Positions 2,650 through 63,487 of a stretch of DNA of 64,000 nt are shown here, one piece after another. The position numbers and the translations under genes are program-made. The DNA comes from an uncultured virus (IMG/VR IMGVR_UViG_3300042402_002237) (lineage: Duplodnaviria; Heunggongvirae; Uroviricota; Caudoviricetes), in the IMG/VR virus record IMGVR_UViG_3300042402_002237. One strand, 5' to 3'. How positions within the stretch are numbered: the stretch's first letter is position 1; each line of letters opens with the position of its first letter. The notes beneath the pieces were generated by a model. It did not search any database. It was not told the DNA's origin and was given only the letters and a program-made list of their open reading frames with translations.

Positions 2650-3167
2650 AAAAATACGACTATTACAAATTAGACGTTGGGTTTTATCCCGACGTGATGA
2701 AGGTATGCTTTTCAAATACTGTATTCCAACAGATACTAAAGGACCACAAGGTCACGATGAAGGCCGAGGCATTAGACATCGGCGTAGCAGAGACGCACCT
2801 GATCGGTGACGGGCAGGACGCACTGGTTATCTTAGTATTTAACTTAGAGGCACTCACCGACGGCATCGACGAGGTAGTCGGCGCTATCGCGCACGAGGTA
2901 AGCCACGCAATTGATCACCTAGCCGAGTACATCGGCGAGGATGATGGCATCAAGGGGGAGACACGCGCCTATCTTAGCGAGTCACTGGTACGGCAACTGT
3001 TTAAGATAACGATGGCGGAGAAAAACAACAATGCTAGAAAAGCAGATCGAAAAATATCTCGTAAAAAAGGTAACACAAAACAAGGGCCTGACGTTCAAGT
3101 GGCTATCCACAGTGACGGGGGTGCCGGATCGGCTAGTATTTCTCAACAATCAGGTCCACTTGGTTGA
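2646..3167 (+). CDS. HExxH putative metallopeptidase-like protein
   Basis: IAHEVSH motif followed by E..AYL. Confidence 0.5.
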   Translation: MKKYDYYKLDVGFYPDVMKVCFSNTVFQQILKDHKVTMKAEALDIGVAETHLIGDGQDALVILVFNLEALTDGIDEVVGAIAHEVSHAIDHLAEYIGEDDGIKGETRAYLSESLVRQLFKITMAEKNNNARKADRKISRKKGNTKQGPDVQVAIHSDGGAGSASISQQSGPLG

Positions 3168-3303: not shown

Positions 3304-3318
3304 TATTTTGCATTAGTA
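3288..3318 (+). promoter_or_regulatory. phage promoter GGGCG-N16-TGCATTAGTA
   Basis: One of 13 copies of the decamer, all oriented toward a downstream gene. Confidence 0.75.
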
Positions 3319-3409
3319 TAAGTAGAGAAGGCGAAAAGGTTTGCAAGCCCTGTCTGTGCCAGTACACAGTCTAGCCCCTCTAATATCCCCCACTTACTGG
3401 AGTATCAAA

Positions 3410-4420: not shown

Positions 4421-5273
4421 TCTCTGGTCCCAGGTGGGTATATTGGACTTAGGGAGCCGTTTAGAGACGTCCTTGACCCGCTTTAGGGACAAGTACATGG
4501 AACCGGACCAATTTAACCGCCATACACGTGTGGTATATAGCTGGAGGATAAAGAAGGGCATGGACAAGATAATCCAAGACAAGATCTCAGACATTTGTTT
4601 TAGCCTGAGGGCCGAGGATTATTTGACACTACCAAAATTAACCGAGCTGTATCACAAAGTAGACATAACCCCATCGGAACGTAAACAATATGACACACTT
4701 AAAAAAGATATGGTCACCGAGCTTGGGACGGAGACGATCACGGCCCCCACTGCGGCCGCGCTTGCAGGTAAGCTCTTACAATTCACCAGCGGGGCGATCT
4801 ATTCCGAGGATGGTGAGTGGCACGAGGTCCATACGGCTAAGATGGAATTTCTTGAGTCGATCCTGGAGGAGTCCTCGTCCCCGACACTCATTTTTTATCA
4901 CTTCAAGCACTCGCTTAGTAGACTCCAGGCTAGGTTTCCGGAGGCTGTCGTGCTTGATGATACCAACATACAGGCGTGGCGTGATGGTAAGATCAGAATT
5001 ATGCTGGCGCACCCGCAATCAGGTGGCATCGGGCTCAATTTACAGTGTAATGTTGGAGAGACAGCGCAGACCGTCTGGTATGACCTGCCGTGGAGTTCAG
5101 AGAACTACATACAGGCCAACGCAAGGATCTACCGCCAAGGCCAAGAAAAACCGGTTGTTATACACCACCTAGCCGTGGCTAACAGCATCGACGAGCAGGT
5201 AATTAAGGTATTGGACGGAAAAATAAATTTGCAGGACGCCCTGCTAAACGCCCTAAATTTTGCATTAGTATAA
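3912..5273 (+). CDS. SNF2-family DEAD/H helicase (start may be TTG 3927)
   Basis: GLGKT Walker A, IIDESS, LTGTP, GLNLQ, QANARIYRQGQ. Confidence 0.92.
   Translation: MWLNNLKKLKRDQLHHYQLSIVEKAKTTPNIGLLLCPGLGKTATTLTIIAEQLKGKTLIVAPKRVAETVWDTEAKKWEHLQHLKIAKILGTPAQRLTALKSSSNVYLVNLENLIWLLEQPEAQFNNLIIDESSRFKDPSTKRFKALKKHLKSFERRIILTGTPTPQGMGDLWSQVGILDLGSRLETSLTRFRDKYMEPDQFNRHTRVVYSWRIKKGMDKIIQDKISDICFSLRAEDYLTLPKLTELYHKVDITPSERKQYDTLKKDMVTELGTETITAPTAAALAGKLLQFTSGAIYSEDGEWHEVHTAKMEFLESILEESSSPTLIFYHFKHSLSRLQARFPEAVVLDDTNIQAWRDGKIRIMLAHPQSGGIGLNLQCNVGETAQTVWYDLPWSSENYIQANARIYRQGQEKPVVIHHLAVANSIDEQVIKVLDGKINLQDALLNALNFALV
5261..5270 (+). promoter_or_regulatory. phage promoter, TGCATTAGTA only (no GGGCG)
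   Basis: Exact decamer upstream of the ACP gene. Confidence 0.65.
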
Positions 5274-5286
5274 ACTAGGAGAGATA

Positions 5287-5571
5287 ATGGATAAGTTAGA
5301 ACTATTTAACGAAACAATCAAACGAGCAAGGCCCGTCAGTGGTGACGAAGTTCAAGCCACGTCACTAGATCAACCAATTAATGAAATTGGTATTGATAGC
5401 CTAGATACGATTATGATTTCAGTTTATTTTTCTGAAATTTACGGGGTAACAGAAGAAAAAGCAAAAGAATTACAACCAACAACGCCAGGACAGTTTTTTG
5501 AATTGTATGAACAGCACGCAACCAAACATCCAAAAACTGTAAAAGAAGCATTAGATAATATTGAATTTTAA
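5287..5571 (+). CDS. acyl carrier protein-like
   Basis: 94 aa, acidic, GIDSLD phosphopantetheine-attachment motif; adjacent to a ketosynthase. Confidence 0.8.
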   Translation: MDKLELFNETIKRARPVSGDEVQATSLDQPINEIGIDSLDTIMISVYFSEIYGVTEEKAKELQPTTPGQFFELYEQHATKHPKTVKEALDNIEF

Positions 5572-5572
5572 A

Positions 5573-6700
5573 ATGAAAATTTACATCACTAAATACAAAA
5601 CGCTTTGCACAAAAGAAACTAAGGTATTGGGTGATTTGGTTTACCCACAACGAGTACATTGGATGCCAGAGTTATACACTCGAGTAAAAACGGGGCTGTC
5701 TTACGTGCCCCATGAAATGGCGAATCGTGTGGCTACAAAAGAAATGGTTGATTATGTCAAATCAAATCCAGTGGAAGGCAAGACAGGATTTTTGTTGGCC
5801 GCTGGGTCACAAGGATGGGCAGGGGGCAAAGCAAAAAGTCAAGACAAACCAAGCGAATTAGATTACAATTTCAAACTTGGAATTTTAACAATGACAAACA
5901 TTTTTGCAGGCCGTATAGCAGGAGTGTTTGAGGCGTATGACTACGTGGCGACTGACGCCAGTGCATGCGCAACGAGCATCAAGTGCATGATGGACGTCAA
6001 CAATTTAATTAACAACATGGGGTTTGATCGTGTCATTATGCTGGCTTTGGAAGATCCAACATCTAAACTAACGCTTGAATTTTTTGGTCAATCAAACGCT
6101 AACTTAGTATTAAAAGACGAAGAAGCAGGCGCGGTACCATCCGCATTTGACAGTAAAAATGGTGGGTTTATTATTGGGCAGGGTGCGGGTTTTGCCATAT
6201 TTGAATCTGAGCGTGCAGTACAAAAGAATGCCGTTAAGCCCGAGGCTGAACTAAAAAGTGCTTGGGTATCAGCGGAGCAATTATCAAACCCAATTGGTCA
6301 GCGTCCTGACGGACAGGGATATCAACGAGCTATTATGGGCGCGATTACACAAGCTAAATGTCAACCATCAGATATTAAAATTGTAAAGACACATGGCACC
6401 GGAACGCCGACTAATAATCAATCTGAAAAGAATGCGCTATTGTCAACGTTACGTGGTGGGTTTATTGCAACGTCGTACAAGCAACACATTGGACACACCG
6501 TTGCAGCTAGTGGATTGTTAGAAACCGGTTTAATTTTAGACGATATTAAAAAAGGAGTCATACCTGGGATTAAAAATAGAACAGAAAACGACGACACATT
6601 TATATCAAAAGATACTACGGCCCCCGATGGTTTATTAATGAGTTTAGCAGCCGGTATGGGAAATATTTACGCAGCAGCTATTTTTGACCCACGAGTATGA
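5573..6700 (+). CDS. beta-ketoacyl-ACP synthase (FabB/FabF/type II PKS KS-like)
   Basis: Cys in DASACATS, His in KTHGTGT, SYKQHIGH, GFIIGQGAG. Confidence 0.88.
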   Translation: MKIYITKYKTLCTKETKVLGDLVYPQRVHWMPELYTRVKTGLSYVPHEMANRVATKEMVDYVKSNPVEGKTGFLLAAGSQGWAGGKAKSQDKPSELDYNFKLGILTMTNIFAGRIAGVFEAYDYVATDASACATSIKCMMDVNNLINNMGFDRVIMLALEDPTSKLTLEFFGQSNANLVLKDEEAGAVPSAFDSKNGGFIIGQGAGFAIFESERAVQKNAVKPEAELKSAWVSAEQLSNPIGQRPDGQGYQRAIMGAITQAKCQPSDIKIVKTHGTGTPTNNQSEKNALLSTLRGGFIATSYKQHIGHTVAASGLLETGLILDDIKKGVIPGIKNRTENDDTFISKDTTAPDGLLMSLAAGMGNIYAAAIFDPRV

Positions 6701-8472: not shown

Positions 8473-8486
8473 ATTTTGCATTAGTA
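8456..8486 (+). promoter_or_regulatory. phage promoter GGGCG-N16-TGCATTAGTA
   Basis: Exact bipartite match. Confidence 0.75.
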
Positions 8487-8558
8487 GATATAGGGCTAGT
8501 AAGCTGTCGGGAGACACCCGAACGCCTTATTTTACATACACAAACACAGGAGAATTAC

Positions 8559-9627: not shown

Positions 9628-9652
9628 AAAGGCCCTACGGGGCCTTTATTTT
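9628..9652 (+). terminator. rho-independent terminator
   Basis: AAAGGCCC-TACG-GGGCCTTT followed by ATTTT. Confidence 0.6.
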
Positions 9653-9662
9653 TGCATTAGTA
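9653..9662 (+). promoter_or_regulatory. phage promoter, TGCATTAGTA only
   Basis: Exact decamer upstream of the DUF2800 gene. Confidence 0.65.
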
Positions 9663-9694
9663 TATGTACGACTAAAACGAATTGAAAGAATAAG

Positions 9695-11227: not shown

Positions 11228-11354
11228 AGAGAAGTTATCACAAGAAGAGCTGTCAAAGATCCAAGAGACCCAAGAGCAAACACTTGCGGACTACTATAAA
11301 AGACGGTTGCAATATTGGGATTATCGTATTGTGAAAAATATAAGTGAATAAGTT

Positions 11355-11364
11355 TGCATTAGTA
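11355..11364 (+). promoter_or_regulatory. phage promoter, TGCATTAGTA only
   Basis: Exact decamer upstream of the SSB gene. Confidence 0.65.
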
Positions 11365-11431
11365 TATTTAGTAAAGGGTAGACGAACTGGCCCCTATTGA
11401 AGTCCAGTTCTACAGTTATAAAGGAATCAAC

Positions 11432-14321: not shown

Positions 14322-14347
14322 GGGGAGCTTAGGCTCCCCTCTTTTTT
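14322..14347 (+). terminator. rho-independent terminator
   Basis: GGGGAGC-TTAG-GCTCCCC followed by TCTTTTTT. Confidence 0.65.
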
Positions 14348-14356
14348 GCATTAGTA
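14347..14356 (+). promoter_or_regulatory. phage promoter, TGCATTAGTA only
   Basis: Exact decamer upstream of polA. Confidence 0.65.
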
Positions 14357-14391
14357 TACGTACCGATACGTCGGACAGCCTAAGGAGCGCT

Positions 14392-26789: not shown

Positions 26790-26820
26790 ATTGCCTCCTT
26801 TGGTTAAATGCTTCTACTTA

Positions 26821-26851
26821 TACTAATGCAAGAATATTGAATTTGTCGCCC
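26821..26851 (-). promoter_or_regulatory. phage promoter GGGCG-N16-TGCATTAGTA
   Basis: Exact bipartite match. Confidence 0.75.
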
Positions 26852-32998: not shown

Positions 32999-33029
32999 GT
33001 CGGTTCCTTCGGGTTAATGGTTCTATATC

Positions 33030-33060
33030 TACTAATGCAAAATTAGGGGTGTTTACGCCC
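33030..33060 (-). promoter_or_regulatory. phage promoter GGGCG-N16-TGCATTAGTA
   Basis: Exact bipartite match. Confidence 0.75.
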
Positions 33061-33586: not shown

Positions 33587-33611
33587 AGAGTCTCCTCGTT
33601 AGTTTGCTATA

Positions 33612-33621
33612 TACTAATGCA
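33612..33621 (-). promoter_or_regulatory. phage promoter, TGCATTAGTA only
   Basis: Exact decamer upstream of the lysozyme gene. Confidence 0.6.
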
Positions 33622-33629
33622 AATTTATG

Positions 33630-46468: not shown

Positions 46469-46564
46469 TATGTGTTTCCTTATCTCAGTGGGTATCCCAA
46501 GCTGTCTCTGAGTCGTCTCACCGGGAAGTATCGGCGGTCAGAATGGGATTAATCTTCCTATAAC

Positions 46565-46595
46565 TACTAATGCAAATTAAACAGAAAAGTCGCCC
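46565..46595 (-). promoter_or_regulatory. phage promoter GGGCG-N16-TGCATTAGTA
   Basis: Exact bipartite match. Confidence 0.75.
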
Positions 46596-49849: not shown

Positions 49850-50290
49850 TTAGTCTACAAACGCTTTCATCTTCTGCGCATGGTCAAATGACTTAATGCG
49901 AGAGATAATTTCACGTGCCTGGATGGTAATAAACACCACGGGGGATCCATCATCATCTGGGCTTACAACAAAACGGTCACCGCCGTACTTGATGGTTCTA
50001 ACCAAATCACCTTCTTTGCACCAAGGGCCTTCAATCCAAGGCTCTAGGGTATCTGGCGACTTATATGCTAGCGGGCCAATCTGGCGTACTTTAGCTACGG
50101 TCTCATTGAAACGTAACGTCTGTCGGGTCTCGTCAACTAAAATGATTCCACCCTTGCTTTTGTCCTTCTCCCGTCTTAACTGCACTAAAACACGGTCTCC
50201 GGCCACTTCAATACCTGGATCGATGTCTGGAAAGCACTCGGCTTCCGAACGAAGATCTGGGTCTTCCTTTTGTGATATATCAAATGCCAT
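49850..50290 (-). CDS. groES: GroES-like co-chaperonin
   Basis: GDRVLV, KSKGGIIL, V..IGP.AY, W.K.GD.V...KYGG. Confidence 0.85.
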   Translation of the reverse strand: MAFDISQKEDPDLRSEAECFPDIDPGIEVAGDRVLVQLRREKDKSKGGIILVDETRQTLRFNETVAKVRQIGPLAYKSPDTLEPWIEGPWCKEGDLVRTIKYGGDRFVVSPDDDGSPVVFITIQAREIISRIKSFDHAQKMKAFVD

Positions 50291-54066: not shown

Positions 54067-54092
54067 TTTGAGCGGGTGGTTATTCCTATTTA

Positions 54093-54123
54093 TACTAATG
54101 CACAAATCCAGGGGTATCCGCCC
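54093..54123 (-). promoter_or_regulatory. phage promoter GGGCG-N16-TGCATTAGTA
   Basis: Exact bipartite match. Confidence 0.75.
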
Positions 54124-55568
54124 TACTGGGCGTAGGGGTTGGCAAATCGCTTGCTTAGGTCGTCGTCCACGTAACTATAGTCTCGAGCCGGTAGCGGGTC
54201 GAGCTGGATCCATCCAGAATCACGTAGAACGCGCAACGCTTGCGAGAGGGAGTCGACGTAGTCGTCGTGTCCACCAGCCTCTGGAAATGAACATACTTGA
54301 CGCAGAAAACGTTTTGCCCAGTCTGCATATTCTCCTTTGCGTTGGGGTTCCTCTGGTATCCAGACTTTGCCCTTAGACACCAGCGGCGCGACAATGTTTA
54401 ACCGTTGTACCTTATCGGCGCGTCCCGGGTTGTATCCCCTGACAGGCACACCAGCTCCCTGGAGCTCCTGGATCAGCGAAATACCCGCCGACTTATCTTC
54501 CATGAGGATCAGGTCCGCCTTTCGGCCCTTACCAAAGTCATTATCGGCGCCGTAAACGACCTCCTTAAAGTCGTTGATTACCTTCCTGCGTAACTCGGGG
54601 TAGGACAGGTGCTCGTCCCAAGCGTCCAGTAATATGATCGCTGTACCAGCGTCTTGTTGTTCAAACACGCCCCAGATGGTGCAGGCGGTTGGGTCGTTCA
54701 TTGTTTTCTCAGAAGTCGCCGGGTCATACGACGCGATGACATACTCCAGTGTCGGAGTTGGCTTGTTGGCTGGCCAGAGCTTAAACTGTTTGCGTTTGAT
54801 GATACCTGACTGTTCTGGGTCAAGGATCTCGCCATAGATCTCTTGTCTTCCAATGTCAGTTCCGTCATACGTTTCAAGCTGTTTGAAAAAAGTCTCTGAA
54901 AGGTTTGCTCGGTTGTCGTAGGACGACGCGTTTGATACGTATACATCCCCACCTACTTTCCCCTCGTTTAAATCTACAATTAATTCTTTTGGCTTGGGTG
55001 TGGTGGTAATAATCTGCTGCACTCGAGGGATGCGTGGGTCCCGTAGACGGAGGGTAAACTGTACTCCATCGTAGGCATCGTCGATGTAATCAAATGCACA
55101 CAGCTCGTCAAACCACGCCCCGTGATATTGTTTACCTCGGTAGCGCTCAGGCTCGGAGGCCGGGATCCCCTGTATAAGAGATCCATTTGTAAGGGTGATT
55201 TCAAACAGGGACTTGTTGTAGTCTCGAATGAGTGACGGGGGAATGATATTGAGAAGTCCAGAGTCCCCCTCGAAACAAGTTGCACGTATATCGTTTGAGG
55301 TGGGAGCGGTGACGAGCCAGCGGGTGTTGTCATACATCCAAGCCCGAATACCAATCCAGTGGCTAGCAGTGTGCGTTTTACCCGATCCACGACCGGCAAG
55401 CATAAGAAACGTGTCATATTCGCCATCCTCTGGCTCCCGTTGGTGTGGTAGCGCCTGTAGGTGCCACTTGACCTGCCAGATGGCAGCCTCAAGCTGTTCC
55501 TTAGGCCAGTGCTTGTTGCTATCTGCGAACTTTTTTAATACAAGCTCTTGTTTTGATGTTAACGACAT
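54123..55568 (-). CDS. terL: terminase large subunit
   Basis: AGRGSGKT Walker A, WFDE Walker B, TTTP, EDKSAG, HDDYVD nuclease. Confidence 0.93.
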   Translation of the reverse strand: MSLTSKQELVLKKFADSNKHWPKEQLEAAIWQVKWHLQALPHQREPEDGEYDTFLMLAGRGSGKTHTASHWIGIRAWMYDNTRWLVTAPTSNDIRATCFEGDSGLLNIIPPSLIRDYNKSLFEITLTNGSLIQGIPASEPERYRGKQYHGAWFDELCAFDYIDDAYDGVQFTLRLRDPRIPRVQQIITTTPKPKELIVDLNEGKVGGDVYVSNASSYDNRANLSETFFKQLETYDGTDIGRQEIYGEILDPEQSGIIKRKQFKLWPANKPTPTLEYVIASYDPATSEKTMNDPTACTIWGVFEQQDAGTAIILLDAWDEHLSYPELRRKVINDFKEVVYGADNDFGKGRKADLILMEDKSAGISLIQELQGAGVPVRGYNPGRADKVQRLNIVAPLVSKGKVWIPEEPQRKGEYADWAKRFLRQVCSFPEAGGHDDYVDSLSQALRVLRDSGWIQLDPLPARDYSYVDDDLSKRFANPYAQ

Positions 55569-56551
55569 GAAATAAAACCCTCTCCTACGAGATAGCTGTT
55601 ATCTGGCCCGTCTGTTTCGATGTGAACACAGGTCTGCGGCTGGATCTTTGTAATTTTTTCGATGTACCTACGCGCCTGGTGTACTTTTATCGGTTTAGAT
55701 ACCTGATTAGGTACCAGTTTTAACCTGGTTTTAAAAAATAGCGAGTAAATTTTCTTTTGTTCTGTAAAACTGAGCCGGGTCTTGCCACCCAGGGACTCAA
55801 CTAGGCCCTGAACTGCCAGCGCCGTGCCATAATGTGTGGTCGAGAACCTAAACTGGTCTCTGTTTGTCGAATATTGCTGGGCCTTTGCAAACAAAATGCC
55901 ACGTAGCAGCTCAATTCGCTGGTCTTTGTCCGCCAGCAGGTAGTTTGCCGGTAATTTTGTCGGAATATCTGGGGCCAACTGTGACTCTATGGTCGGCGAT
56001 ATGGTAAATTGGCGCCAGCCATTTTTCAAAGTCTTGCGAATCTTGACCTTGTACCCAAAATCTTTGAGTTGCTGCTCAACTTCTTCGGTTGTATCGGGGT
56101 TTGTTGTAAAATATCCGCTGGGTTTGCGGTTTATAAACCAGAACCCAAACACAAACGGCGGGACTGGTAGGGTCTGGTGGGGTAGCTCGATGGGTTTTGT
56201 GGTAGGGATCGAATAGATCCGGTGGTTGTCTTCCCGCTTATGTCCCCGCTCTAACAAATTTTCCACGTTTATGGGCCGTAGTGGCCGCCTAAATGGGTGG
56301 TAGCCTTTGTACGTCATGGCACGCAGCCGGTACTTAAAGTTTTCCACCAAAAATTCCAGGCGTTTGTCCCCAGAAATTGTAAGGTAATCGTTTAACGTAA
56401 CCTCGTAGCAGTCCTCTGAGAAGTATTCCTGGACCAGCTTTACCTTTACGGGTTTGCCGTTTTGGTCAAACAGGTAGTCACCCGGCTGGATTTTGTTTGC
56501 CGGTTTCCAGTAGTCCAAGGTCAGGACTTTTTGATTTGCTAGTATTGCCAT
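55559..56551 (-). CDS. free-standing Hint (intein-like) plus degenerate LAGLIDADG protein
   Basis: VLT..W...I.PGD..FD..GKP..V N-Hint, PPF.FG.W and R.ELLRG endonuclease blocks, CVHIE.D..DNSYL C-Hint. Confidence 0.7.
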   Translation of the reverse strand: MAILANQKVLTLDYWKPANKIQPGDYLFDQNGKPVKVKLVQEYFSEDCYEVTLNDYLTISGDKRLEFLVENFKYRLRAMTYKGYHPFRRPLRPINVENLLERGHKREDNHRIYSIPTTKPIELPHQTLPVPPFVFGFWFINRKPSGYFTTNPDTTEEVEQQLKDFGYKVKIRKTLKNGWRQFTISPTIESQLAPDIPTKLPANYLLADKDQRIELLRGILFAKAQQYSTNRDQFRFSTTHYGTALAVQGLVESLGGKTRLSFTEQKKIYSLFFKTRLKLVPNQVSKPIKVHQARRYIEKITKIQPQTCVHIETDGPDNSYLVGEGFISCR

Positions 56552-56819
56552 AAAAATTATCTAGGACCCACAGGTCCAGCCAACGCCCTAACGGCGCCCT
56601 AATTTTGTTTTGGATCTCCACGGGCAGTCGGTTAATATCCATGTGCTCGCAGACCTTTAAACGAAACTCGATGTACTTAGCCGTCTCTTTGTCCAATATT
56701 TCAACTGGCGCGTCGGCAGAGTCAAAGTGATACAGGTTACAGACCAGGACACGGAACCCCCTAAGTCTTCCATTAGAATCTTCTAGGGCACCCTGGATCT
56801 GGTAAACATATTCGTTCAT
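56478..56819 (-). CDS. hypothetical protein (probably leaderless)
   Basis: ATG 5 nt after the promoter decamer. Confidence 0.6.
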   Translation of the reverse strand: MNEYVYQIQGALEDSNGRLRGFRVLVCNLYHFDSADAPVEILDKETAKYIEFRLKVCEHMDINRLPVEIQNKIRAPLGRWLDLWVLDNFYGNTSKSKSPDLGLLETGKQNPAG

Positions 56820-56824
56820 ACATC

Positions 56825-56855
56825 TACTAATGCAAACATTTGATTATTATGGCCC
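56825..56855 (-). promoter_or_regulatory. phage promoter GGGCC-N16-TGCATTAGTA
   Basis: Bipartite match with one mismatch. Confidence 0.7.
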
Positions 56856-56901
56856 CACCTCAATGCGATAGTTTTTAACTATCAATTTTGCTCGCAGAAG
56901 C

Positions 56902-57014
56902 GCGGCACTTGCGGCACTTGCGGGGGTATATTCCAGGTTTCCCTCTATCTTTATTTTTTATTTTTTAAAAATAATAAAAATAGTAAAGTAACCCCCGCAA
57001 CCCCCGCATCCCCG
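56902..57014. repeat. inverted 9-bp iteron-like repeats around an AT-rich core (possible origin)
   Basis: GCGGCACTT x2 plus TGCGGGGGT ... ACCCCCGCA repeats flanking an A/T tract. Confidence 0.5.
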
Positions 57015-57200
57015 TCAAACATCAAGGACTTAGCGCATTTCATTTCACATTGTGAAATTTACTATACAAATTTTACAAAAAAAATTTTAGAAAGTCGACT
57101 TTTGTGGGTAATGGAACGAGCTTGGGGTCTGTGGGGCCCCCAGCCGGCCGCCCCGCCACGGGACCCAAATTGGCATACCGCATTATGAAAAAGCCCCCCG

Positions 57201-57257
57201 TGCACCAAAATGGTGCACAAATTCACCGCCTTGGTGCGTCTGCACCAACATGGTGCA
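57201..57257. promoter_or_regulatory. three NtrC-box-like sites
   Basis: TGCACCAAAATGGTGCA, TTCACCGCCTTGGTGCG, TGCACCAACATGGTGCA. Confidence 0.65.
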
Positions 57258-57270
57258 CAGCTCGAGCGCT

Positions 57271-57428
57271 TCGATGTTAGTGAGCGCTCACTAACATCGA
57301 GGCACCGCGCCCCCCTGCCAAGTAGCGCATTGGTTAGTGAGTACTAACTAACATGGCCGAGCGCCCACTCTGTCCCCATTATCAGCACTCGATGTGCCTG
57401 AGTGCTAAGTTAGTAAGTGCTAACTAAC
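57271..57428. repeat. three GTTAGTRAG|..CT.ACTAAC palindromes
   Basis: Perfect 30-bp palindrome 57271-57300; related copies at 57333-57352 and 57409-57428. Confidence 0.75.
57382..57408. promoter_or_regulatory. CIRCE element (HrcA operator)
   Basis: TCAGCACTC-N9-GAGTGCTAA; 17/18 match to TTAGCACTC-N9-GAGTGCTAA. Confidence 0.75.
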
Positions 57429-57517
57429 ATGGCGCCCTGTTAGGGTAAATACCTATTGACGGATTGGACGCGTTTTAAGGGGGCTAGGAGGCGCGCAGGG
57501 CAGAGATGATGGTTAGG

Positions 57518-57530
57518 TATCAACTCATTG
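57518..57530 (+). promoter_or_regulatory. IHF-site consensus match
   Basis: TATCAA-CTCA-TTG fits WATCAANNNNTTR. Confidence 0.5.
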
Positions 57531-57628
57531 ACGATCGTTGAGCCATCGAGCTGGGGTGCCACCACAAAGGCTTTGCGGGCGCGAGGGCGGATAGGTGGGG
57601 TGGGCGAGTGATCAGGTAATTTGAGTTA

Positions 57629-57653
57629 CCACAATATCCCACAATCCCCCACA
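57629..57653 (-). promoter_or_regulatory. MraZ-box-like triple repeat
   Basis: TGTGG-N5-TGTGG-N5-TGTGG (10-bp period). Confidence 0.55.
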
Positions 57654-57679
57654 GTTTAGTCAGGTATTTTATTTAGTTG

Positions 57680-57709
57680 TTTACATTTAATTCCAAAGGT
57701 CTGTACAAT
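57680..57709 (+). promoter_or_regulatory. host sigma70-type early promoter
   Basis: TTTACA-N18-TACAAT with AT-rich upstream region. Confidence 0.6.
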
Positions 57710-57893
57710 AGAGGGTATCGGAAGTGCAGTGGCTAATCCACTCAAACGCAAACCCAACCGCGATCTATAAGGGGGAGCCGGCAGAACCGGTGCTGTTATC
57801 CAACACAGCGTATGCTAACAGATAGTAATGCTCAGAGCGCATTGTAACCAGTGCGCTCGAGGCAGTACTAACCAAACAACAGGAGATTACACC

Positions 57894-58145
57894 ATGGCAA
57901 AATTCACAGTCGTTAAGTTAATCGATGAGAAAAAAGTAGTACCTGCAAGATTGTTACCTGAGCAGTGTGGTGGCAACATGACATGGCAGATTGATGACAA
58001 AGACGTATTGGAGTACAACCCCAAGACTAAACAGTTTAGCCTTGAGGTTTATGAGTTCCAAAATGATGACTACGAGCTAGTCAACACCTTGGGGCACGAT
58101 GACGCGTATCAGATAGCATTAGATGAGGGTATCTGCTACGAGTAA
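57894..58145 (+). CDS. early hypothetical protein
   Basis: CAGGAG RBS before ATG 57894. Confidence 0.7.
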   Translation: MAKFTVVKLIDEKKVVPARLLPEQCGGNMTWQIDDKDVLEYNPKTKQFSLEVYEFQNDDYELVNTLGHDDAYQIALDEGICYE

Positions 58146-58147
58146 CA

Positions 58148-58199
58148 GGTCGAAACAGCCTAACGGCTGTCTGCACGTTAGGCGTGCACTGATGAGACC
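58148..58199 (+). ncRNA. type II hammerhead ribozyme
   Basis: GGTC-GAAA-CAGCC-TAAC-GGCTG-TC^-TGCACG-TTAGG-CGTGCA-CTGATGA-GACC. Confidence 0.92.
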
Positions 58200-58220
58200 A
58201 CACACAACACAGGAGAGCCT

Positions 58221-62751: not shown

Positions 62752-62940
62752 TTGTGGAGAGGCACCATTTTGAAAATCATCGGCGCATTTATTGTAATGA
62801 TCACTGGGTTTTGGTTTGCCCAAGGGATGTTTGATCTGTATACGATCTTGTGGTTTGTATTTGGGCTAGCAATGCTCATACCAACAGAAGTTTATAAAAC
62901 ATTATGGGAGCTATATGAAAGAAAACGACATTCTAAGTGA
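62752..62940 (+). CDS. small membrane protein (start may be TTG 62770)
   Basis: Two hydrophobic segments. Confidence 0.5.
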   Translation: MWRGTILKIIGAFIVMITGFWFAQGMFDLYTILWFVFGLAMLIPTEVYKTLWELYERKRHSK

Positions 62941-63487
62941 CTACCTCAAGTCGCTGTACGGCATCGAGCCGTTGACAGTGGAGGAAGAGCACGAGCTCGC
63001 CAAGAGGATTCAAGCAGGCGACGAGGGTGCACTTGAGCAGTTGATCAAGCACAACCTGCGCTTTGTGGTCTACGTCGTCCGTAAGATGACGGCGTGGAAC
63101 CACGGCAAGGTGCCAGTGGAGGACATGGTCGCCATGGGTAACGAGGCATTGTTTACGGCGGGTCGTAGGTGGGTGCCTAAGAACAACGCACGCTTTGCCA
63201 CATACGCCAAGACGTTTATTGAGAAGGGCGTACGGCGTGACCTAGACAACACGGCAAACATCATACGCCTGCCAATCAATATCATGGAGCAGGTAAAGAA
63301 GTTAAACTATACCGAGCGCTCGCTATCCCAAGTACTGGGGCGTAAGCCCAAGACGCACGAGATCGCCACGCTCATGGGCGTCACAGAGAGCAAGGTGCAC
63401 CAGTTGCAGGGATACATCGCACGTGAGCCAGTATCGCTCGACCACATCAACCAAGAGAAGTTTACCGAGGAGCATTTAGATGATTGA
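62915..63487 (+). CDS. sigma70-family factor, regions 1.2-3 only (lacks region 4)
   Basis: L..EEE.ELA, LI.HNLRFVV, ED....GN..L..A, RFATYA...I, IRLP, LGR.P...EIA, PVSLD then stop. Confidence 0.88.
   Translation: MKENDILSDYLKSLYGIEPLTVEEEHELAKRIQAGDEGALEQLIKHNLRFVVYVVRKMTAWNHGKVPVEDMVAMGNEALFTAGRRWVPKNNARFATYAKTFIEKGVRRDLDNTANIIRLPINIMEQVKKLNYTERSLSQVLGRKPKTHEIATLMGVTESKVHQLQGYIAREPVSLDHINQEKFTEEHLDD

Follow-up and report, generated by a model that had tools for sequence, protein, structure and literature searches.

The DNA considered here is a stretch of 64,000 nucleotides (the window) from an uncultured virus of the Caudoviricetes, IMG/VR record IMGVR_UViG_3300042402_002237, and represents a phage genome or most of one. 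A non-coding gap separates its late operon, which includes the terminase genes, starts at 56819 and reads leftward on the minus strand, from its early genes, which lie on the plus strand with the first at 57894. The late operon is preceded by a phage-specific promoter-like motif, TTTGCATTAGTA..., at 56815–56836 on the minus strand, directly before its first open reading frame (ORF; 56478–56819) and invariant in relatives. The only good sigma-70-type promoter within the gap is the early promoter TTTACA-18-TACAAT at 57680–57709 on the plus strand, which has 10/12 matches and is kept in most relatives. Two layers lie between these elements. Layer 1 (56901–57174) consists of iterons around an AT-rich spacer, an IHF-like site and a GC-rich element, and layer 2 (57201–57655) is an array of sites resembling the operators of unrelated bacterial regulators: NtrC-type boxes, 20-bp palindromes of the type bound by SlmA and by TetR-family repressors, a CIRCE element (the HrcA operator type) and MraZ-type repeats. 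These sites are present, conserved, similar to host operators, and orphaned both from phage regulators and from their normal promoter contexts. Judged from sequence, and with a confidence that falls just short of even, we read the gap as a conserved two-layer cis-acting hub whose second layer may capture host proteins in trans.

A first-pass annotation of this DNA had described the region 56860–57660 as a dense array of host operator-like sites, and all of the motifs that it listed were recovered by eye in their places. Analysis of palindromic loci (arms of at least 7 and spacers of at most 9 bases) revealed 8 in this region, compared with a mean of 0.83 (standard deviation 1.1) and a maximum elsewhere of 4 in 158 comparison windows of 801 bases, taken at steps of 400 across the 64 kb. 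In 500 dinucleotide shuffles the mean was 0.52 and the maximum was 3; none of the 500 reached 8, so the density of motifs is indeed above that of shuffled controls. The CIRCE element (at ≤3 mismatches), the NtrC box (≤1), the 20-bp palindrome and a 7-1-7 palindrome are confined to 57043–57430 within the 64 kb. Three other elements, TAGG-N7-CCTA (57441–57455, followed to 57465 by the near-invariant TTGACGGATT), GGTAA-N6-TTACC (57615–57630, read by eye) and the IHF match at 57518, are real strings that individually do not rise above chance. When checked against bacterial genomes or papers, the proposed host-type operators turned out to be largely right for the CIRCE/HrcA, NtrC and MraZ sites and for the palindrome that had been called TetR-like, which is an operator type in bacteria and can be sharpened to the SlmA-binding-site (SBS) type. 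A reading of the palindromes as RNA structures was dropped because they show no compensatory changes, the N positions of the second and third 20-bp sites being non-complementary; Rfam searches over the region returned nothing within 56860–57660.

The three 20-bp palindromes are located at 57276–57295 (GTTAGTGAGCGCTCACTAAC, the core of a perfect 30-bp palindrome at 57271–57300), 57333–57352 (GTTAGTGAGTACTAACTAAC) and 57409–57428 (GTTAGTAAGTGCTAACTAAC, which abuts the CIRCE element). PMC3020112 gives the SBS consensus as GTGAGTACTCAC, with G, T, A and G at positions 1, 2, 4 and 5 essential, and describes a palindromic core of 12 bp in which position 3 is a purine and position 6 a pyrimidine; PMC4423959 gives a 20-bp consensus, GTAAGTGAGCGCTCACTTAC, bound by a dimer of dimers. 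Palindrome 1 agrees with this E. coli consensus at 18/20 positions; palindromes 2 and 3 agree at 15/20, and one relative's site at 19/20. Only one other position in the 64 kb lies within five mismatches of GTAAGTGAGCGCTCACTTAC, and 30 shuffles gave 0–1 such positions. By the published 12-bp core rule, both halves of site 1 (GTGAGC and GCTCAC) pass, as do the left halves of sites 2 and 3. The phage sites thus share with the SBSs of E. coli and V. cholerae a 20-bp palindrome with the core GTnAGnnCTnAC. Natural SBSs are dispersed and mostly degenerate chromosomal sites numbering 24–52 per nucleoid; the phage differs from them in carrying 3–7 near-consensus copies within ~350 bp, and in outer arms (ATGTTAGT ... 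ACTAACAT) that equal the TetR-efflux operators of other phyla.

Exact matches to TGTTAGTNAGNNCTNACTAACA were found at 19 loci in 185,579 species genomes. Eleven of these 19 bacterial loci have a TetR_N gene immediately next to the identical 22-bp pattern, with efflux genes (OEP/HlyD/MFS/ABC) as neighbours, and at three of the four proteobacterial loci the genome encodes a true SlmA (NF007015 above cut-off) and the site does not stand beside a TetR gene. Compared with the TetR efflux operators, the phage sites occur in several copies, none of them on a promoter, and are not placed beside a repressor gene of their own, no TetR_N domain being found among the 104 window ORFs. A BLAST search of E. 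coli genomes with site 1 and its flanks returned no match. Of 300 genomes sampled from one class, 62 encode SlmA (NF007015) and 51 of these 62 also encode HrcA, which makes a host with both proteins plausible.

Similar sites are present in other viruses. Exact consensus-grade SBS-type 20-mers were found in 20 viral contigs (reversed control, 0), comprising 4 relatives of the window and 16 contigs without nucleotide similarity to it, and the exact E. coli SBS consensus occurs in two viral contigs. Ten of the 16 unrelated contigs carry 2–3 SBS-type sites close together, and no TetR was found among 54 flanking ORFs at 12 of the 16, the four near-duplicates having been set aside. Three of the unrelated contigs (L108, L116 and L119) have CACGTGAAACA, which resembles half of a parS-type site, ~40 bases before two exact SBS-type sites lying 34 bp apart. 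Separately, in a Pantoea genome that encodes SlmA (G005), an exact SBS-type palindrome at position 3001 of the locus L063 lies ~250 bp downstream of a Rep3-type plasmid initiator gene; plasmid-like replicons may also carry SBS-type sites.

The NtrC-type boxes are located at 57201–57217 (TGCACCAAAATGGTGCA), 57222–57238 (a 10/12 copy) and 57241–57257 (TGCACCAACATGGTGCA). The two outer boxes are perfect TGCACC-N5-GGTGCA, giving the pair of sites expected of NtrC, and with the weaker copy between two perfect TGCACCA-N3-TGGTGCA boxes the arrangement resembles the enhancers of glnA/ntrB and glnK; it differs from them in that no sigma-54 promoter lies in reach and the spacing varies by lineage. Of 151 genomes, 11 contain the exact NtrC 17-mer (0 for the control). 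Contexts were examined at 10 loci: at one (L075) the 17-mer separates glnA from a PAS-HisKA kinase gene, at another (L083) it is upstream of P-II, and at two (L078 and L082) it adjoins a PAS-HisKA-type kinase gene; the remaining six contexts are unrelated or unclear.

The CIRCE element at 57382–57408, TcAGCACTC-N9-GAGTGCTAA, matches 17/18 bases of the consensus TTAGCACTC-N9-GAGTGCTAA, which was verified as a genomic motif, and is perfect (18/18) in three relatives (L010, L012 and L026). Within one bacterial class, 101 of the 151 genomes sampled contain the pattern at ≤1 mismatch (reversed control, 0/151): 95 of the 98 that encode HrcA and 6 of the 53 that do not. In at least 12 genomes hrcA follows the pattern immediately. 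The unpublished genomes G044, G146 and G301 are counted here. The phage element shares the 9-N9-9 inverted repeat of an operator that tracks hrcA in bacteria, and differs in its setting, as it does not separate a promoter from a chaperone gene; no gene follows it inside the gap, and the phage's own GroES (Cpn10) gene (49850–50290) is 7 kb away. In some relatives the left arm of CIRCE is replaced by cTGGCACTCGAyvTGCC, with no correlation to the presence of NtrC boxes.

At the early end of the array, a triple direct repeat of the MraZ type at 57629–57655 reads TGTGGGGGAT / TGTGGGATAT / TGTGGT on the minus strand with a 10-bp period, giving three CCACA on the plus strand. The regions upstream of mraZ in 5/5 bacterial genomes contain three wGTGGk repeats, also with a 10-bp period, and comparison with the phage repeats revealed the same unit, period and order of variants, in keeping with the three direct GTGGG-type repeats of the MraZ operator in the dcw cluster. 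The phage copies differ in position, being upstream of and inverted to the early promoter, whereas the bacterial ones are downstream of the dcw promoter. A further class is found in relatives of the phage. The Fur box is a 19-bp GATAATGATAATCATTATC-like site, and cassettes of this type (16/19 bases) are present in L005, L016, L018, L020, L048 and L029–L032; they replace or join the CIRCE cassette in 5/15 close loci. Their 17-mer core has 13 matches in bacterial genomes (control, 0), and three of the six best-placed matches adjoin genes of the iron-uptake type; the copy ahead of the gene for an FbpA-type binding protein is exact, and others stand next to genes for an FTR1 permease and a cupredoxin.

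To follow the region through related phages, we used 45 IMG/VR loci retrieved by a search with the 330-aa ORF of the late operon. In 15 of the 45, the whole non-coding region aligns with 77–90% identity over 1.3–1.5 kb and is about as conserved as the flanking genes; in 15 further loci from three more distant lineages (51–60% protein identity), nucleotide similarity is lost and the layout is kept. A turnover census of these 15 close and 15 distant loci, each with at least 1100 nt upstream, found the NtrC boxes in 13/15 close and 15/15 distant loci (28/30 in all) and the SBS-type sites in 15/15 close loci, with 3–7 copies, and 8/15 distant ones. CIRCE at ≤1 mismatch occurs in 7/15 close loci (12/15 at ≤3 mismatches) and 0/15 distant ones, the MraZ triple in 10/15 and 4/15, and Fur-type sites in 5/15 and 4/15, while the 7-1-7 palindrome family is present in 15/15 of both groups and an ATAG palindrome in 15/15 and 0/15. 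These counts indicate a turnover of cassettes, by gain, loss and exchange, around a persistent core. The arms of the NtrC boxes remain fixed even between lineages in which iterons and flanks no longer resemble each other at all, a pattern that a conserved host protein as their binder would produce.

Layer 1 is that core, and its central part, the iterons and AT-rich DNA at 56901–57017, had gone unrecognised in the first-pass annotation. Three direct 9-bp iterons (CGCGGCACT, TGCGGCACT and TGCGGGGGT) form the left arm on the plus strand (56901–56927), an AT-rich spacer of ~60 bp (56928–56990) forms a candidate DNA-unwinding or cleavage region, and three inverted iterons (ACCCCCGCA, ACCCCCGCA and TCCCCGTCA) form the right arm on the minus strand (56991–57017). 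This layout of iterons, spacer and inverted iterons is common to all four lineages compared. The iteron sequence differs by lineage (TGCGGGGGT, TGACGGGGT, TGTCTGGGT, TGTAGGGT/TGTTGGGTC and TTGTCCGAC) and the two arms always change together; the binder of the iterons is therefore most likely a phage protein. The adjacent 113-aa ORF was considered for this role and rejected, as it differs by one substitution between relatives with different iterons; it was likewise rejected as a small terminase, being dissimilar to those of MW202545 and RLK.

Beside the right iterons, at 57021–57032 on the plus strand, lies the IHF-like core ATCAA-N4-TTA, which had been annotated as CATCAAGGACTTA at 57020–57032. 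It is present in 27/30 loci, has C at the W position, and is flipped in orientation in two distant lineages that were checked (L031 and L035). The IHF consensus is WATCAANNNNTTR; it has 6 perfect matches in the 64 kb, against roughly 2 expected by our own estimate, and one of them, at 57518–57530, had been singled out as a perfect IHF site. That string is present in the window and absent from 15/15 close relatives, whereas the imperfect site at 57021 is kept. An A8T4 tract followed by a GC-rich element (CTTGGGGTCTGTGGGGCCCC ... GGGACCCAAATTGG, around TGGGGCCCC) occupies 57068–57174 and is kept in all lineages; the first-pass annotation had suggested that it may mark the physical terminus. A single DnaA box with 8/9 matches lies at 57103 (~7/9 in most relatives). 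Iteron-type replication origins have repeated initiator sites on either side of an AT-rich unwinding element. Three plus three inverted 9-bp iterons around ~60 bp of AT-rich DNA, maintained in four lineages, could belong to such an origin and would fit a packaging site equally; layer 1 is probably one or the other.

Upstream of the iterons, GATAGTTTTTAACTATC and CAATTTTGCTCGCAG form an invariant block at 56867–56897 (15/15 close and 0/15 distant loci). The motif ATAG-N7-CTAT at 56868–56882, part of the fuller palindrome GATAG-N7-CTATC (56867–56883), had been called OxyR-like. An OxyR site is composed of two ATAGnTnnnAnCTAT units 7 bp apart, and the phage element matches one half of such an OxyR/LysR-type box: the motif is there as described, but it is a single unit, and the next 15 bases do not match. 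Downstream of the IHF-like core, the perfect 7-1-7/8-1-8 palindrome ATTTCACA-T-TGTGAAAT (57042–57058) had been assigned to IclR, a guess that found no support. In five candidate-host-type genomes, TTTCACAnTGTGAAA gave two one-mismatch matches, both in one genome, and hence no enrichment. Sites of this TTTCACAwTGTGAAA type occur in 30/30 loci with 1–4 per region; since they are universally kept and yet not enriched in host-type genomes, at least one class of sites is probably specific to the phage.

The last point bears on an explanation in which the palindromes as a whole are operators, centromere-like sites or packaging sites for unrecognised phage proteins, their likeness to host operators being convergent or coincidental. 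Such proteins could exist, since the early ORFs are mostly without a family, the iterons do follow a lineage-specific and thus phage binder, and the TTTCACAwTGTGAAA family, present at all 30 loci, is unenriched in candidate-host-type genomes. Yet four independent classes stand at or near a host-operator consensus, and a CIRCE of 18/18 in three relatives is not expected by chance. The invariance of the NtrC arms, where iterons and flanks have wholly diverged, is at odds with a phage binder, as is the recurrence of orphan SBS-type arrays with no TetR nearby in unrelated viral contigs. In addition, TetR_N, HrcA, FUR, MraZ and NtrC-type domains are absent (0 hits) among the 104 window ORFs scanned. 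We regard this explanation of the whole array as improbable.

Less probable again is that the genome termini (a terminal repeat, cos or pac) lie here and that the repeats serve packaging, pausing during ejection or protection of the end, the "landing strip" that had been proposed for this DNA. The region is directly upstream of the terminase genes, and iterons with an AT-rich spacer and an IHF site resemble terminase-binding layouts such as lambda cosB. Moreover, 10 of the 45 related contigs stop in the 1 kb upstream of the gene that opens the terminase region (the 330-aa ORF), versus ~1–2 in the 1 kb downstream. Those ends, however, scatter over 56590–57523 rather than sharing one coordinate, a pattern that fits assembly breaks at repeats or micro-diversity, and 15 contigs read through the region. 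The 113-aa ORF, unchanged except for one substitution despite different iterons, is also unlike the small terminases of related phages. A genome end would account for the iteron core and not for the array of host-operator consensus sites, and we consider it very unlikely.

Our preferred reading is that layer 2 captures host proteins, as a conserved array of near-perfect sites suggests that the phage could do so with DNA alone. The sites of layer 2 overlap no recognisable promoter, an exception being the MraZ-type repeats, which closely precede the early promoter. We infer that host proteins would bind the array and that their binding would act in trans at high genome copy. During replication to high copy, the array would draw in host DNA-binding proteins and so act on the cell. 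Titration would remove HrcA, MraZ, NtrC and Fur from their own operators, and loss of repression by HrcA would raise host GroEL, which would suit a phage that brings only a GroES. SlmA loaded onto the dispersed tandem sites would gain its DNA-activated anti-FtsZ activity and block cell division. Precedents exist in constructs. Multicopy plasmids with tandem SBSs produce an SlmA-dependent lethal division block according to PMC3573117 and PMC4117426, and the phage sites are like those of the laboratory pUC-2xSBS plasmids in being tandem copies on a multicopy replicon. Multicopy operator DNA in synthetic decoy arrays titrates a regulator and derepresses its regulon, as PMC7826281 describes. Such arrays differ from the phage region in being laboratory constructs, and the same is true of the Fur titration assay, in which a multicopy operator titrates the regulator. 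A full-text literature search, with subscription journals outside its scope, returned no report of phage-borne SBSs or of natural multi-factor decoy arrays in phages. A broader proposition, that phages reprogram the host by DNA alone, with an operator-mimic array as a multi-target trap and tandem SBSs as a DNA-encoded division inhibitor that would block Z-ring assembly through SlmA loaded on hundreds of genomes, is more speculative, and we hold it to be rather doubtful at present; on this view, the orphan tandem SBS-type sites of the 16 unrelated viral contigs suggest that the strategy is widespread.

The same sites could instead work in cis. In a regulatory sensor hub, host proteins bound in the gap would make the early or late promoter or the origin-like core responsive to the state of the host, namely to nitrogen through NtrC, folding through HrcA, division through MraZ and SlmA, and iron through Fur. 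The host-operator identity of the sites fits this explanation equally well, as does their location between divergent promoters and beside an origin-like element. The MraZ-type repeats are merely 25–50 bp upstream of the early -35 element, and by eye a CATTAT string immediately before CIRCE looks like the -10 element of chaperone promoters. Host-factor sites that regulate phage genes are also known, including LexA, NtcA, PhoB, Fur and IHF boxes. However, the only good sigma-70-type promoter is 250–480 bp away from most of the sites and overlaps none of them, NtrC would have no sigma-54 promoter to activate, and 3–7 tandem SlmA/TetR-type sites exceed what an operator needs. Cassettes are moreover gained and lost between close relatives while the flanking promoters are unchanged. 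We therefore think a sensor hub unlikely, though it is the strongest of the alternatives.

Several observations weigh against capture of host proteins by layer 2. Some concern the binder of the 20-bp palindromes. The right halves of palindromes 2 and 3 keep G, T, A and G but have T at position 3, where only purines are reported as tolerated in the mutational study (PMC3020112). The identical palindrome is a TetR-efflux operator in other phyla (the 11 of 19 loci described above), and SlmA is therefore not the sole candidate binder. Association tests with SlmA were uninformative: the exact pattern was found in 2/301 genomes versus 1/301 in the control, and at ≤3 mismatches five genomes gave 29 positions versus 84 in the control. 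In E. coli, the division block by plasmids needed ~4-fold overproduction of SlmA. Other points concern the array as a whole. Capture presupposes a host that contains SlmA, HrcA, NtrC and MraZ. Single cassettes are dispensable, CIRCE being degenerate or lost in 8/15 close relatives and the NtrC block lost in 2/15. The first-pass annotation had named conserved motifs in shuffled order among relatives as support for its reading; the motif classes are kept, with variation in copy number and cassette content, but the order among close relatives is mostly inherited rather than shuffled. No Fur-type box was found in the window region at ≤5 mismatches. A sigma-54 promoter has the form TGGCAC-N5-TTGCW and lies ~100–200 bp from its enhancer; none with ≤1 mismatch was found in 56860–57900, and no chaperone gene follows CIRCE. 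These sites are therefore out of their normal context, which fits a decoy and equally a role in cis.

The genes around the gap are those of a phage that is probably lytic, because no integrase or repressor family was found among its ORFs. The late operon encodes, besides the 113-aa and 330-aa ORFs, the large terminase, portal, the Cpn10/GroES homologue, capsid, an SU10-type adaptor, tail fibres and lysis genes. The large terminase gene is complete (54126–55568, minus strand; Terminase_6N and 6C). The 330-aa ORF upstream of it (55559–56551, minus strand) has weak PHROG matches to terminase large subunits and no Pfam family, and may be a small-terminase equivalent or have another role. The early genes on the plus strand encode a sigma factor (62915–63484), a helicase, a DUF2800 nuclease, an Enc34-type SSB, a class II RNR and a family-A DNA polymerase, and most early ORFs have no family assignment. 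Amid the early and middle genes, a beta-ketoacyl-synthase-like gene (5561–6697, plus strand) is an unusual auxiliary gene. Copies of the motif TTTGCATTAGTA(T/G)A stand before many genes of either strand throughout the phage, with examples on the plus strand at 3306–3330, 5258–5282, 8474–8498, 9650–9674, 11353–11377 and 14344–14368, and on the minus strand at 26802–26832, 33011–33045, 33608–33627, 46546–46580, 54074–54104 and 56815–56840. The motif is probably a promoter read with the phage's own sigma factor, in which Pfam recognises regions 1.2, 2 and 3 and region 4 was not found.

Two structured elements are present among the early transcripts. An imperfect hairpin at 57823–57870 (plus strand), with 22-nt arms that are 77% complementary, lies within the ~185-nt leader of the first early gene; it is conserved, shows apparently compensating changes in some relatives and may be an RNA processing or regulatory structure. 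Between early genes, at 58147–58209 (plus strand), lies an element like a type II hammerhead ribozyme with an intact core (CGAAAC ... GUC ... CUGAUGA), and 28 further copies were detected in 17 related loci (for example L010 at 95, 335 and 839, on the minus strand of the locus). In these 29 copies stems I and III covary, and all are on the early-gene strand. The window copy scores 31.5 bits in Rfam versus a gathering threshold of 37, and Rfam on seven relatives' loci gave no hammerhead at E≤0.01, although the core-motif scan does detect copies there. The hammerhead-like copies suggest that the early polycistronic RNA cleaves itself.

The phage has no close named relative. By large terminase, the nearest named phages are MW202545 at 53% and the Caulobacter phages at 42% amino acid identity (RLK), and for the DNA polymerase no record exceeds 37% identity. 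A region comparable to the non-coding gap is absent from MW202545 and from Caulobacter phage RLK, the nearest record (G001) is without it, and a nucleotide search of 56800–57900 against 50,697 phage records returned zero matches. The stretch itself was detected in 20 metagenome runs of lake water or freshwater from 14 studies, and five of the runs may represent the source sample.

Takeover of the host by phages has so far been understood almost wholly through phage proteins. If capture by layer 2 is true, a natural and conserved non-coding array that captures unrelated host regulators would constitute a protein-free layer of takeover, and the captured set would include a nucleoid-occlusion factor that disassembles FtsZ when bound to DNA. 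Some of the long non-coding stretches that phage genomes conserve would thereby find an explanation, and natural, ready-made decoy cassettes would become available. Even if the sites have an ordinary function, the CIRCE, NtrC, SlmA-type, MraZ and IHF cassettes predict the host clade of this uncultured group of lake phages, which on the basis of these motifs is predicted to be a proteobacterium with both SlmA and HrcA.

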